From a virus (lineage: Duplodnaviria; Caudoviricetes), in IMG/VR virus record IMGVR_UViG_3300027743_000033, positions 1 through 52,412 of that record: a stretch of DNA of 52,412 nt. One strand, given 5' to 3'. Made by a program: the position numbers and the translations under genes. Positions 11,236-14,824 of this stretch are shown here, one piece after another. Each line of letters starts with the position of its first letter. Position 1 is the first letter of the stretch. Below the pieces are notes generated by a model. The model searched no databases. It saw nothing but the letters and a program-made list of their open reading frames with translations, and was not told the origin of the DNA.

Positions 11236-11279
11236 TTGCTACAATGTGTAGCACACGGGGTCAACTACCAACTGTAGCA
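11236..11279 (-). promoter_or_regulatory. OR/PR: two 17-bp operators (11237-11253, 11263-11279) overlapping a TTGACC-N17-TAGCAA promoter
   Basis: TGCTACAATGTGTAGCA has perfect 7-bp arms; second site is AACTACCAACTGTAGCA. Same layout recurs at 14781-14824. Confidence 0.82.
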
Positions 11280-11608
11280 ACATGAATCCTAGTGTGGTAA
11301 GCATGTCCACACGAGGGGAACGACTGCGAGAAGCGCGGATTGCGGCCGGCTATGGATCGGCTAGCGCAGCCGCGACCGCACTGGGCATCTCTCGTTCGAC
11401 TTACAATGCACATGAGCGCGCCGAGGAGCCCGGTGGAAGAGATTATGGCCCAGAGGATGCGGATCGTTATGGACGGAAGTTCAATGTCTGTTGCGCGGCG
11501 TGGAAAATTGCCCCCCGTCTGGGGGTGATCGGCGTCGAAAACTGACCCCTTACCCCTTGGTCTGAAGATGACCTCTGGTGCGTTCATCGCATGAGAGGCG
11601 AGACGAGG

Positions 11609-13171
11609 ATGGTGACGGTGGAGACGATTGGCAAAGTTCGGCGGGCCTACTGGGTTCAGAAGAAGAAGATCAAGGCGATTGCGCGTGAGCTGAAGCTGGC
11701 GCGGAACACCGTGCGGTCGATCGTGCGGAGCGGAGAGACGGCGCCGGTCTACCTACGCAAGGCGCAGCCGCTGCCGAAGCTTGGGCTTTTTGTCGAGCCG
11801 CTCGATAAGTTGCTTGAAGAGAATGCAGGCAAGTCCAAGCGCGAGCGGCTGACGACGAAGAGGGTGTTCGAGAAGCTGCAGCAGGAAGCAGGCTATGCGG
11901 GCGGCTACGACGCAGTTCGCCGGTACGCACAGCGCTGGCGCCAACAGCATGCGGCAGCAACTGCGGCGGCGTTTGTGCCGCTCTCGTTTGCGCCAGGGGA
12001 GGCCTATCAATTCGACTGGAGCCACGAGATCGTGATCCTCGACGGCGTGACGGTCGAGGTGAAGGTGGCGCACATGCGGCTCTGCCACAGCCGGATGCCG
12101 TTCGTGCGGGCCTACCTGCGCGAGGCCCAGGAGATGGTATTCGACGCCCACGACACGGCGTTTGCCTTCTTCAAGGGAGCCTGCCAGCGGGGCATCTACG
12201 ACAACATGAAAACGGCTGTTGACGCGATCTATGTGGGCAAGGATCGAGCGTTCAACAGGCGCTTCCTACAGATGTGCAGCCACTACTTGGTCGAGCCCAC
12301 GGCGTGCACGCCTGGTGCCGCGTGGGAAAAGGGCCAGGTCGAGAAGCAGGTGGATAATCTTCGCACGGCCGTGTTCATGCCCAGGCCGCGGTTCAAGAGC
12401 TTGGAAGACCTCAACGCCTGGCTGCTCGCGGAGTGTATTGCCTGGGCCAGAAAGCAGGCTCACCCGGAGTTCCAAGACCAGACGATCTTCGAGGTGTTCG
12501 AGGCTGAGCGCAAGAATCTGGTCGGCTATCGAGGTCCTTTTGATGCCTACCGCTCGATCTCGGCGTCGGTGTCAAAGACGTGTCTGGTCCGCTTCGACAA
12601 CAACAAATACTCGGTAATGGCCAAGGCCGTCGGCCGTCCGGTCGATATCTACGCCTATGCGGACAGCGTCGTACTCAAGCAGGACGGCGAGGTCGTCGGC
12701 GAGCATCCGCGCTCATTCGCCCGCAACAAGACCCAATACGATCCGTGGCACTACGTGCCGGTGCTGGCGAGGAAGCCCGGGGCCATGAGGAACGGGGCGC
12801 CGTTCAAGGACTGGGAACTGCCCGGCGCGCTCGGCCGGGTGAGAGCCAAGCTCAAGGGCGTAACGGATGGCGATCGCCAGATGGTCGATATCCTCACCAC
12901 GGTGCTCACCGACGGGCTTGCTGCGGTGGAGGCGGCGTGTGCGGAGGCTTTTGCCGGTGGGACGCATAGCGCGGACGTCATCTTGAACATCCTGGCGCGA
13001 CGCAGCGAGCCGACACCATCCCCAGCCGTTGCTACACCGGCGCAACTGCATCTGGCGGTGCCGCCACGGGCTGATTGCGCTCGCTATGATGGCCTACGGC
13101 CGCTGCCGACCCACCCCACCGCTGCGCTTGTCGAAGCCGCCACCGTGGGAGGTACTCATGGAGCGGTCTGA
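11609..13171 (+). CDS. istA: IS21 transposase IstA
   Basis: N-terminal [20 protein letters not shown] and EKGQVE (DDE motifs). Confidence 0.96.
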
Positions 13172-13886
13172 GATCCTGGAGATGATGGGCCAACTGCAGC
13201 TGTCTGGCATGCGGGGGGCTTACGACGAAATCGTCACAGCGGGCATCAAGCGCAGCCACGGGATCGAGCGCGTCATTGGTGCCTTGCTCAAGGCCGAGAT
13301 CGCGGAGAAGGAGGCGCGCTCGATTCGCTACCAGATGGGGATCGCCAAGCTGCCGCTCGCCAAGGAGCTTGCCGAGTTCACCTTTGCCGGCACGCCGATC
13401 AACGAGCAACTGGTGCGCGACCTGGCGGGCGGCGGCTTCCTTGCTCAGCAGCGCAACGTCGTGGCGATCGGTGGAACTGGCACCGGCAAGACGCATCTTT
13501 CTATCGCCATCGCGAGAAGCTGCATTCGTGCGGGCAAGAAGACGCGCTTCTTCAACGTCATCGATCTCGTCAACAAGCTCGAGGCCGAGGTCAAGCTCGG
13601 TCGGGCCGGCCGCATCGCCGACGGGTTGACACGCGTCGACCTGGTGATCCTCGACGAACTGGGCTATCTGCCATTTGCCCAGAGTGGCGGCCAACTGCTG
13701 TTCCACCTGATCAGCCGCCTCTACGAGCGCACCTCTATCATTGTCACCACAAACCTTGCTTTCGCCGAGTGGCCGACCGTATTCGGCGACGCCAAGATGA
13801 CGACCGCACTGCTCGACCGGCTCACGCACCACTGCGACATCATCGAGACCGGCAACGACAGCTGGCGCTTCAAGAACCGCAATTGA
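13158..13886 (+). CDS. istB: IS21 helper ATPase IstB
   Basis: [34 protein letters not shown]. Confidence 0.96.
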
Positions 13887-14583
13887 CGCGCTTGCCCGCT
13901 CCGGCCAAGCGCCCACATGATCGCTGCCCGACTTGCACTTAGCCTGCCAGCGTGCTCGCCACCGGCAAGGTGCGGCCTGGCGACGGCGGAGTGTGCCGCA
14001 CGGTTGGAGCGACGGCCGACCTTGACGGCGTCTGCGCGCGCTGGCCGCGCGCGATCGCAAGGTCGGGGCGAAGGAACGCGCCAGATCGAACAAAGGAACT
14101 GCACTGTAGAACGGCGCCAAGTTCTGACCCCTCATCAGCATCAATCCTGACCCAAAAAAACGACCGACACTTGAGGCTGAAGCTGCGCAGCTTCGGGCTC
14201 AAATGGCCGAAAACTCATGCGCAGGAGGGTCAAATTTGCACGCCGATCGGGGGTCAACTTCGGACGCCGATTGACATCAATGTCTCGGATGCCTATTTGT
14301 TGACCGGAAAAAACTTGGTGCCACCCGATGCCTTCAAGAGATCAAAGCCTGTGCCAATGCTGATCGTCATTAAGGCTGAATTTGATCCCGACTCCGAATC
14401 CTGGTGGGCCACCGCGGATATTGACGATCGCCACGCGTTAGCAACTGGTGCTCCTACATTGAACGAATTGCTGGAACGAATCCCAATTGTGCTGCGAAGT
14501 CTTTTGGCAGAAGCGTACCCGGACACGGAAATTCCGTTCAGCATCGTGGCCCACAAATTCAGCGTCGTGAACACGCGCGTGGC

Positions 14584-14778
14584 ATGAATAATTTTACCCC
14601 GGCGTTAAAAAAACTTCTGCGTGAAGCCGGTTGTTTTGTCGTCAGATCGGGGAAGGGCGACCATGAAATCTGGGAAAGCCCGGTTTCCAACAAGCGCTTC
14701 CCGGTCGACAGCAAGATTGCATCCCGCCACTTGGCGAACGCAGTGCTGAAACAAGCCGGATTAGCCAAACAATTTTGA
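14584..14778 (+). CDS. hicA: HicA-family mRNA interferase toxin
   Basis: 64 aa, LKKLLREAGC..VRSGKGDHEIW...ANAVLKQAGL with the catalytic His. ATGA-coupled to the cI-HicB gene. Confidence 0.9.
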   Translation: MNNFTPALKKLLREAGCFVVRSGKGDHEIWESPVSNKRFPVDSKIASRHLANAVLKQAGLAKQF

Positions 14779-14780
14779 AT

Positions 14781-14824
14781 TGCTACAAAACGTAGTTGAC
14801 GGCCTCTGCTACGTAGTGTAGCAC
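14781..14824 (+). promoter_or_regulatory. OL/PL: two 17-bp operators (14781-14797, 14807-14823) overlapping a TTGACG-N17-TAGCAC promoter
   Basis: TGCTACAAAACGTAGTT and TGCTACGTAGTGTAGCA, with spacing identical to OR/PR. Confidence 0.82.

Follow-up and report, generated by a model that had tools for sequence, protein, structure and literature searches.

The window analysed here is an entire IMG/VR virus record (IMGVR_UViG_3300027743_000033), 52,412 bp in length and 95% complete according to CheckV, and on the evidence of its gene set (integrase, RecE/RecT, RusA, primase-helicase, endolysin, tape measure, tail fibre, portal, capsid and large terminase (TerL)) it is a lambdoid temperate phage. 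Its early genes form two arms. The minus-strand arm consists of a cro-like gene, a gene for a protein of 173 amino acids (aa), and genes for an HNH-helicase, RusA and a primase-helicase; the plus-strand arm consists of small genes, genes for a RecE-like exonuclease and a RecT-like annealing protein and, further on, the integrase gene. Between both arms sits the gene with which this report is concerned, a repressor gene that is split by an insertion sequence (IS) of the IS21 family and that overlaps, at its end, a gene for a HicA toxin (Table 1). The original prediction, made from the letters of the stretch alone, held that this gene encodes a CI-type master repressor whose C-terminal half is a HicB-like antitoxin domain, and that the choice between lysis and lysogeny is thereby wired to a toxin-antitoxin pair. 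Its statement that the repressor is divergent from cro was confirmed, the cro-like gene lying on the minus strand and the repressor on the plus strand.

The element that splits the gene has all the hallmarks of its family: an istA gene whose product contains Pfam rve and Mu-transposase C domains, an istB gene (PF01695, IstB_IS21; E 2e-74), several repeats at each end, as is usual for IS21, and a target-site duplication, TCAATGTC, whose 8 bp are within the usual range for IS21 elements. The N-terminal part of the repressor runs from 11282 (or from the ATG at 11303) to 11488, ending ...GRKFNV, and the C-terminal part occupies 14285-14584, beginning SDAYLLTGK..., giving a frame of 169 aa from the ATG at 11282 or of 162 aa from the ATG at 11303, the start that is conserved in relatives. 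The stop codon (TGA, 14585-14587) overlaps the ATG of hicA at 14584 as ATGA, just as had been described. The two halves were assigned to one gene by way of natural proteins and sequencing runs, without any artificial joining of pieces. One such protein, P0002, matches the window with residues 1-72 at 11282-11497 and with residues 67-169 at 14276-14584, the two matches overlapping because the target site is duplicated; residues 1-72 are 92% identical to the N-terminal part, and the protein reads KFNVSDAYLLTGK across the junction and ...GRKFNVSDAYLLTGK... at the point of insertion. The four fused protein clusters of this type (P0002-P0005; 162-169 aa; alignment A1) are 86-90% identical to one another, cover all 100 residues of the C-terminal part of the window gene at 88-89% identity, and carry the N-terminal part too. 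The single 162-aa frame that was expected upon removal of the IS and one copy of the duplication is thus matched, end to end, by natural unbroken proteins of 162-169 aa.

Sequencing reads point in the same direction. In run X1, a freshwater-sediment metagenome whose contigs were obtained from Logan, contigs break exactly at the IS ends, and one contig joins 11480 to 14277, skipping 2,796 bases (2,788 + 8). Depths in this run are 26.6 and 22.6 for the two flanks, 8.9 for the IS interior and 11.8 for the IS-free joint contig, values that would fit a mixed population, with the unbroken allele no less common than the interrupted one. Near-identical copies of the IS (0-1 differences over 1.6-2.4 kb) occur without phage flanks in the sediment and soil runs X2 and X6, so that the insertion looks recent, and partial matches (73-79%) link the element to IS21 istA/istB genes of alphaproteobacterial plasmids (Methylobacterium, Beijerinckiaceae and Roseomonas). 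Runs X2, X6 and X15 cover the IS only, not the phage, and are uninformative on phage habitat or expression; runs X2-X14 (n=13) contain about 0.55-0.59 of the sampled words, which is roughly the IS share of the stretch. Within the IS-bearing record itself, the N-terminal fragment ends with 18 IS-encoded residues (open reading frame (ORF) 11282-11545), the product called in the record (P0001) is 138 aa long and starts in IS sequence, and the frame is open at 13952-14587, from inside the right IS end into the antitoxin domain; hence, even with the IS in place, the HicB domain and hicA could be expressed by read-through from the element. A further thought, of a speculative kind, is that the IS-bearing genome may be a derepressed, 'virulent' derivative.

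The N-terminal part is a helix-turn-helix (HTH) domain of the Cro/CI (XRE) kind, as judged from its fold and from its likeness to the DNA-binding domains of S24-type repressors. AlphaFold, applied to P0002, models this domain as five helices, with a predicted local distance difference test (pLDDT) score of 83-92, and its top fold matches are the DNA-binding domains of SinR, 434 Cro, ImmR and P22 c2 (TMt 0.76-0.88). Searches of family models gave a match to HTH_31 (E 7.8e-5) that, at 23.3 bits, is below the cut-off of 27, and a match to a PHROG transcriptional repressor with an E value of 0.0024. Over 62 residues, the domain is 73% identical to the HTH of S24-peptidase repressors encoded by two proviruses, L004 and L005, with the predicted third helix, STYNAHE, being identical, and these findings support the XRE HTH that the original prediction had described as ending FNVSDAYLLTG. 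The repressor genes of L004 and L005 are likewise divergent from a cro homologue, and the cro-like protein of the window is 48% identical to the product of the gene divergent from the CI gene in L004. Among the 150 best representatives of the HTH family in a library of 1.84 billion proteins, 35 carry Peptidase_S24 and six carry DUF1902. The S24 domain (PF00717) has no match anywhere in the window, the positive control having matched in 9/14 genomes. Given that the same HTH and, as detailed below, the same operators serve an S24-type CI in its relatives, the window CI can be read as one in which the S24 domain has been exchanged for HicB plus hicA, i.e. as one DNA-binding domain and operator set that is used with two alternative C-terminal modules.

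The C-terminal part belongs to the small HicB-like proteins. It matches DUF1902 (E 1.5e-6; 28.6 bits, cut-off 22), and its profile matches TTHA1013 (PDB 1WV8) at an E value of 1.1e-5. When folded alone by AlphaFold, the domain forms three strands followed by a helix (pLDDT 78.6), and 1wv8 is the top match of this model both by Foldseek (E 1e-4; template modelling scores of 0.67/0.72) and by VIA-align (Z 8.6, root-mean-square deviation 2.8, 68 residues). HicB was defined by reference to the partial RNase-H fold of TTHA1013 (PMC10865869). The possibility that the C-domain would turn out to have no HicB-like fold, which would have spoken against the proposal, was therefore not borne out, the domain coming out as HicB-like by profile, Foldseek and VIA. 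The order of domains is the reverse of that in classical HicB, which starts with the HicB domain and ends with an HTH or RHH domain, the HTH being at residues 1-76 here and the HicB domain at about 94-169. The linker between them is present as described, although 'Pro-rich' needs the small correction that it holds four prolines in 16 residues. Other resources added little: Foldseek with the full-length model returned HTH matches only, NCBIfam and PADLOC had no match for the fusion, the C-domain or HicA, the ESM Atlas gave generic HTH clusters plus one classical HicB-with-HTH cluster at 0.81 (below the guide value of 0.9), and a BFVD fold search gave weak matches to small viral proteins, including a 'HicB-like antitoxin' of Gordonia phage Skog (E 5.9e-3), which were not used.

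Unbroken fusions of an XRE HTH to DUF1902 exist beyond the window type. A profile search with the C-domain yielded 34 proteins: the four unbroken fusions of the window type; seven unbroken fusions of a second type, 173-177 aa long and with a strongly diverged HTH; the split product of the window itself; one N-terminally truncated fusion (P0159); one probably artefactual chimera (P0007); four stand-alone domains of 76-83 aa (P0014, P0164, P0166 and the distant P0176); and 16 short fragments. The frame is continuous in all of the second-type fusions, and a stop or frameshift between HTH and DUF1902, which would have undone the proposal, was seen in none of the 11 fused clusters. Of the 150 proteins listed in an exhaustive search of representatives, just two, P0005 and P0013, span both domains. 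A second-type fusion can be seen in context on another viral contig, L007, where it is unbroken and lies between a cro-like gene and hicA, the place at which such homologues had been expected, with the same ATGA overlap. The L007 C-domain is 66% identical to that of the window, and all five L007 matches to a different palindrome, CGTTAC-N5-GTAACG (0.22 expected), are located either immediately before the fusion or immediately after hicA. A different HTH and different operators in the same layout indicate that a changed recognition helix goes with a changed operator. Three candidates were set aside along the way. P0072 (161 aa), which aligns to query residues 7-134, has a C-terminus without DUF1902 motifs and was not counted as a fusion; P0159 (111 aa), considered as a stand-alone domain, proved upon alignment to be an N-terminally truncated second-type fusion; and P0007 (169 aa) combines the final 55 residues of DUF1902 with sequence of carboxyltransferase and AMP-binding type, and is probably a chimeric contig or assembly artefact.

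The gene overlapped by the repressor encodes a member of a strongly conserved HicA family: 1,731 relatives were retrieved at E <= 1e-5, and the 52 that were aligned share 66-94% identity. The histidine of its GDH motif, His27, is invariant in 52/52 of the aligned relatives and, by analogy with Escherichia coli HicA, is presumably the catalytic residue. The adjacency of hicA and the antitoxin domain in one operon, with the ATGA overlap, holds in both the window and L007, and the HicA of the window is 91% identical to the product of the gene downstream of the L007 fusion. Across related records, hicA travels with the intact domain: it is present in 2/2 records with an intact fusion (the window and L007) and absent from 2/2 S24-type records and from 2/2 records with only truncated DUF1902 remnants (L003 and L006), the HicA family model thus matching 1/5 related records, namely L007. 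For five further fusions, there is one 64-aa HicA cluster each whose longest contig is equally long, and fusion and toxin probably share a contig in these cases. The CI:HicA complex, whose modelling had been suggested as a check, was predicted using the C-domain, and scored 0.82 versus 0.01 for the best of three controls, with contacts that agree at least 98% between runs and a partner pLDDT of at least 91. The modelled interface takes in HicA His27 as well as D10, W17, H26 and T30-G31, which are invariant in the antitoxin domain. Failure of the fusion to neutralise HicA would have told against the proposal; the model instead supports binding of HicA by the C-domain.

As a separate observation, the DUF1902 remnants of L003 (5491-6312) and L006 (6007-6165) are truncated and lie in separate small ORFs, in records that contain no hicA anywhere. 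The L003 remnant follows an unrelated 132-aa HTH repressor-like gene, and the L006 remnant is on the cro side, after a 176-aa gene. The frame of the L003 remnant enters a region (about 6300-8800) that is GC-rich, has overlapping ORFs on both strands, and gives repetitive translations rich in Arg, Gly, Pro and Ala.

The repressor and hicA are flanked by matched operator units. The palindrome TGCTAC-N5-GTAGCA, when up to two mismatches are allowed, occurs five times in the window compared with 0.87 expected, and none of 100 shuffles reached five. Four of the matches (11237, 11263, 14781 and 14807) form two pairs, one beside cro (OR) and one beyond hicA (OL), with operator centres 26 bp apart within each pair; the fifth, at 30714, is unrelated. 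In each unit, one operator overlaps TTGAC(C/G) and the other overlaps TAGCA(A/C) 17 nt away, i.e. putative -35 and -10 hexamers. The same operator is found in L004 (three matches versus 0.20 expected) and L005 (four versus 0.24), at OR and at a downstream OL, and TTGAC and TGTAGCA are invariant across the five aligned units (OR, OL and the L004/L005 units). Based on these hexamers, the units would fire away from the repressor and hicA, PR in the direction of cro and PL into the recE/recT arm. The original prediction of matched OR and OL units around the repressor and hicA stands in that both are present, except that OL is an inverted rather than a direct copy of OR relative to the promoter. 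In its layout the locus resembles a lambda-type immunity region: the repressor gene and cro diverge, and repeated palindromic operators cover two putative early promoters that would fire outward. No terminator-like site was found between hicA and the PL unit (14700-14900), and so transcripts of the repressor and hicA might enter the early-left genes unless OL-bound repressor blocks them.

Table 1. Coordinates of the split repressor gene, its operators, the inserted element and the flanking early genes in the window
Feature	Position	Strand	Remarks
Repressor, N-terminal part, Cro/CI-type HTH	11282..11488	+	Conserved start ATG 11303; IS cut just before predicted fifth helix
Repressor, C-terminal part	14285..14587	+	HTH end (SDAYLLTG), linker, DUF1902 small-HicB domain (from M at 14357), stop codon
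hicA toxin gene, 64 aa	14584..14778	+	PF07927, 36 bits (cut-off 27); PHROG 353 'toxin', E 9e-13
OR/PR unit	11235..11279	-	Perfect operator 11237-11253, imperfect operator 11263-11279
Putative PR	-35 TTGACC 11259-11264, 17-nt spacer, -10 TAGCAA 11236-11241	-	By conservation
OL/PL unit	14779..14824	+	Imperfect operator 14781-14797, perfect operator 14807-14823
Putative PL, rightward	-35 TTGACG 14796-14801, 17-nt spacer, -10 TAGCAC 14819-14824	+	By conservation
IS21-family insertion sequence, 2,788 bp	11489..14276	+	istA 11591-13171, istB about 13158-13886
Left target-site duplication copy, 8 bp	11481..11488		TCAATGTC
Right target-site duplication copy, 8 bp	14277..14284		TCAATGTC
cro-like gene, 73 aa from the ATG common to relatives	11006..11227	-	ORF extendable to 11254; divergent from repressor
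Second gene of leftward (PR) operon, 173 aa	10488..11009	-	Pfam: weak HTH_28/HTH_26 matches only
First gene of rightward (PL) early operon	14853..15077	+	From ORF list
RecE-like gene	15892-16890	+	PHROG, E 3.9e-46
RecT-like gene	18627-19643	+	PHROG, E 3.2e-57

The explanation that we favour, at a probability of roughly 0.6, is that the split gene encodes a phage CI-type immunity repressor in which the S24 domain has been replaced by a DUF1902 HicB domain that arrived with hicA, and that the protein works as proposed. The anatomy that had been put forward, a CI-type repressor with a HicB-like C-domain, paired with hicA and placed between OR and OL, is borne out by the unbroken homologues, the S24-type relatives, the second type of fusion, the fold and the complex model, and a putative dual function as repressor and antitoxin is well supported by that anatomy. 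According to this explanation, the HTH would bind the palindromic operator pairs, which overlie the -35 and -10 hexamers of the two outward promoters, repressing both PR, which would drive cro and the replication genes, and PL, which would drive recE/recT and the integrase gene. The C-domain would bind HicA one-to-one over its catalytic face and so silence the RNase. With hicA presumably coupled in translation to the repressor by the ATGA overlap, the toxin would be made only together with its neutraliser, and since the S24 domain is absent, induction would not be able to run via RecA-stimulated self-cleavage. The level of repressor would be set by antitoxin-type turnover (proteolysis), along with the ratio of HicA to repressor; HicB is known to be degraded by Lon. 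Loss of the repressor, whether by curing, mutation or shut-off of the host by another phage, would also free HicA, and the freed toxin might make the cell dependent on the prophage (addiction) and perhaps also provide abortive defence, acting from the position of rexAB in lambda. The IS21 element would recently have cut the gene between its two functions, with the unbroken allele appearing to coexist in the same sample. That the entire switch runs on toxin-antitoxin logic, the repressor being a labile antitoxin and HicA both hostage and antirepressor, such that proteolytic or translational stress, acting via the HicA:repressor ratio, induces the phage rather than RecA, and loss of the repressor by curing, a clear-plaque mutation or host shut-off by another phage is punished with an RNase, is a tentative extension that we regard as possible and no stronger than that.

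Several points weigh against the favoured explanation. Foremost among them, binding to a palindromic operator calls for a dimer, yet the protein has lost the S24 domain from which dimer and tetramer contacts normally come, leaving dimerisation of the chimera as the main gap. A scan for consensus promoters across 10900-15100 gave no promoter, and the repressor's own promoter was not found by eye either; PR and PL are thus placed by conservation only. The C-domain is poorly predicted in the full-length model (pLDDT about 42-70), and classical HicB chains (6u0i, 6g1n, 5yrz and 4p78) match it at Z scores of only 4.2-5.1, within the VIA noise band. The mark against which the complex score is calibrated was reached by 58/80 solved complexes and 2/110 mismatched pairs, counts that hold only roughly here because our own alignments were used in the model; furthermore, HicA-HicB complexes have already been solved, and the pass may therefore reflect memory or likeness rather than this particular pair. 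As for the unbroken allele, the shorter side of the IS-free joint is 21 letters, which is under the guide value of 30-31 letters, run X1 may be the window's own source, and the gene is broken in this record. Finally, the fusion family is rare, comprising 11 protein clusters, so far from metagenomes and viral contigs only. Scans with P0002 of genome contigs (502 pattern matches) and of metagenome contigs (566 pattern matches) confirmed no relative, in collections from which near relatives of the window may be missing, and a tblastn search of 50,697 deposited phage genomes with P0002 gave nothing.

Among the alternatives, the one that fares best concerns the signal for induction. HicA might be a built-in antirepressor, in that a raised HicA:repressor ratio, e.g. 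after stress-induced proteolysis, would release the repressor from OR and OL and induce the phage independently of RecA. The antirepressor domains ANT and Bro-N are both lacking from the window, as is an exact match to GTTC-N7-GTTC, the alphaproteobacterial LexA box, although that search used a single exact pattern and presupposes an alphaproteobacterial host. The lack of all of these and of an S24 domain leaves no visible route for RecA-driven induction, which speaks for HicA in this role, as do the strict linkage of hicA to the domain and the behaviour of E. coli HicB, which represses its operator in a manner that is destabilised by excess HicA (PMC10865869). On the other hand, translational coupling would fix the ratio at synthesis, so that only differential decay could shift it; classical HicB dimerises via its DNA-binding domain, whereas the geometry is reversed here and HicA binding need not reach the HTH; and other, small antirepressors might be present that go unrecognised. 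An antirepressor role for HicA is, on this balance, doubtful.

A second alternative takes DUF1902 to be mainly an oligomerisation module that replaces S24, with HicA serving as a co-repressor or structural partner whose RNase activity is of little consequence. Palindromic operators 26 bp apart do need dimer, and perhaps tetramer, contacts of the sort normally supplied by S24, and in many type II systems the toxin serves as a co-repressor. However, HicA retains the invariant catalytic His27 in a very conserved 64-aa family, and the predicted interface covers the catalytic face, as in neutralisation, making this alternative unlikely. Least probable, to the point of being hard to sustain, is that the locus is an ordinary hicBA accessory module, whose antitoxin has an N-terminal XRE domain that regulates its own operon only while another gene encodes the immunity repressor: although type II antitoxins commonly carry an autoregulating HTH, the Pfam HTH matches of the N-terminal part are below their cut-offs, and hicAB genes are common prophage passengers beside a separate cI (PMC12421842, PMC12894663), the same HTH and operator serve an S24-type CI at the same position in L004 and L005, the operators are at both outward early promoters and not only upstream of the module's own gene, no other S24 repressor is in the window, and S24 fusions make up 35/150 of the best HTH relatives.

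The surroundings of the immunity region add some further observations. The integrase gene (22798-23841) occupies a central place in the record, with the early-left arm on one side and the genes for lysis and structure on the other, and the record is therefore laid out as a circular or virion map rather than as an integrated prophage, which would be bounded by att sites. In the leftward operon, the cro-like protein has no Pfam or PHROG match and a weak, sub-threshold match to NCBIfam carph-isopro (28.9 bits, cut-off 38); homologues of the 173-aa gene that follows adjoin cro in L003 (47% identity) and L006 (73%). Further along the cro-side operon (7945-10473) is a gene for an 842-aa protein with an N-terminal HNH nuclease motif (several HNH families) and a helicase-like region, which matches a PHROG DNA helicase at an E value of 9.7e-13. 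Between the RecE-like and RecT-like genes, at 16890-17738, lies a 282-aa homing-endonuclease-like ORF with repeated 'ADPEF.KA' motifs (PHROG E 1.7e-12). An Rfam scan of 10000-16000 found nothing. Around the immunity region of L007 are two ORFs that, from their translations, we take to be GcrA-like (3707-4081) and adenine-methyltransferase-like (motif NPPF; 5775-6371), and the window encodes a 32%-identical relative of the GcrA-like ORF at 6740-7243. These ORFs and the matches of the IS to alphaproteobacterial plasmids point to alphaproteobacterial hosts.

Both the modularity of phage repressors and the presence of toxin-antitoxin passengers in immunity regions are known; the window gene unites them in a single polypeptide. 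Sister phages that use the same HTH and operators with S24 constitute a clean natural domain swap, and this swap makes it testable how the C-terminal module sets the induction signal, DNA damage on the one hand versus proteolysis or toxin ratio on the other. The system also allows a test of whether the toxin enforces lysogeny by punishing loss of the repressor, or defends the lysogen from the place of rexAB. If the switch were indeed to follow toxin-antitoxin logic, S24- and HicB-type C-terminal modules would be alternative 'sensor cassettes' for one switch, sharing HTH and operators.

Set beside lambda-type CI, as represented by the S24-type repressors of L004 and L005, the window repressor has the same HTH family (73%), operator, place opposite cro between outward promoters, and gene order. 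It differs in lacking S24, and with it the Ser-Lys autoprotease and RecA-stimulated cleavage, its C-terminal half being a DUF1902 small-HicB domain of about 76 aa that is followed by a coupled hicA. Compared with HicAB systems, the likeness resides in the overlapping order of hicB then hicA, in the small antitoxin domain of the TTHA1013/DUF1902 type with a partial RNase-H fold, and in a 64-aa HicA with a conserved histidine. Gerdes (2024) distinguished 14 contexts of HicA, in which Class 2 is hicBA with a small HicB that has no DNA-binding domain and Classes 5 and 6 are hicBA with an N-terminal Phd/YefM domain (PMC10865869). Stand-alone relatives of the window domain, 76-80 aa in length, exist as well (P0014, P0164 and P0166). 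In contrast, the N-terminal XRE/CI-type HTH of the window is in none of the 14 classes in the main text of that paper, and the window operators govern phage early promoters and not only the module's own. The architecture of N-terminal XRE HTH, small HicB domain and downstream hicA would thus be an addition to those contexts.

A full-text search of open-access papers and bioRxiv found no description of a CI-HicB fusion, in agreement with the original remark that no example was known, though close precedents exist. A hicAB pair is situated near cI in gonococcal Ngo phi3 (PMC12421842), and hicAB2 is in prophage P1 of Pseudomonas putida (PMC12894663). These pairs are borne by temperate phages, as in the window, and in Ngo phi3 also lie near the repressor; as described in those two papers, they are separate classical hicA-hicB operons, with a HicB that has its own promoter and DNA-binding function and is unfused to CI. 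The nearest precedent, going by the account in PMC8630535, is paaR2-paaA2-parE2 of the cryptic lambdoid prophage CP-933P in E. coli O157:H7. There, a toxin-antitoxin pair is within the immunity region and shares a transcript with the gene for a CI-like repressor, opposite which lie Cro-like and CII-like genes, and the module was proposed to be addictive, protecting the immunity region (PMC8630535). In that system as described, the toxin is ParE, and the repressor PaaR2 is a protein distinct from the antitoxin PaaA2, whereas the window pairs HicA with a repressor and antitoxin fused into one chain.

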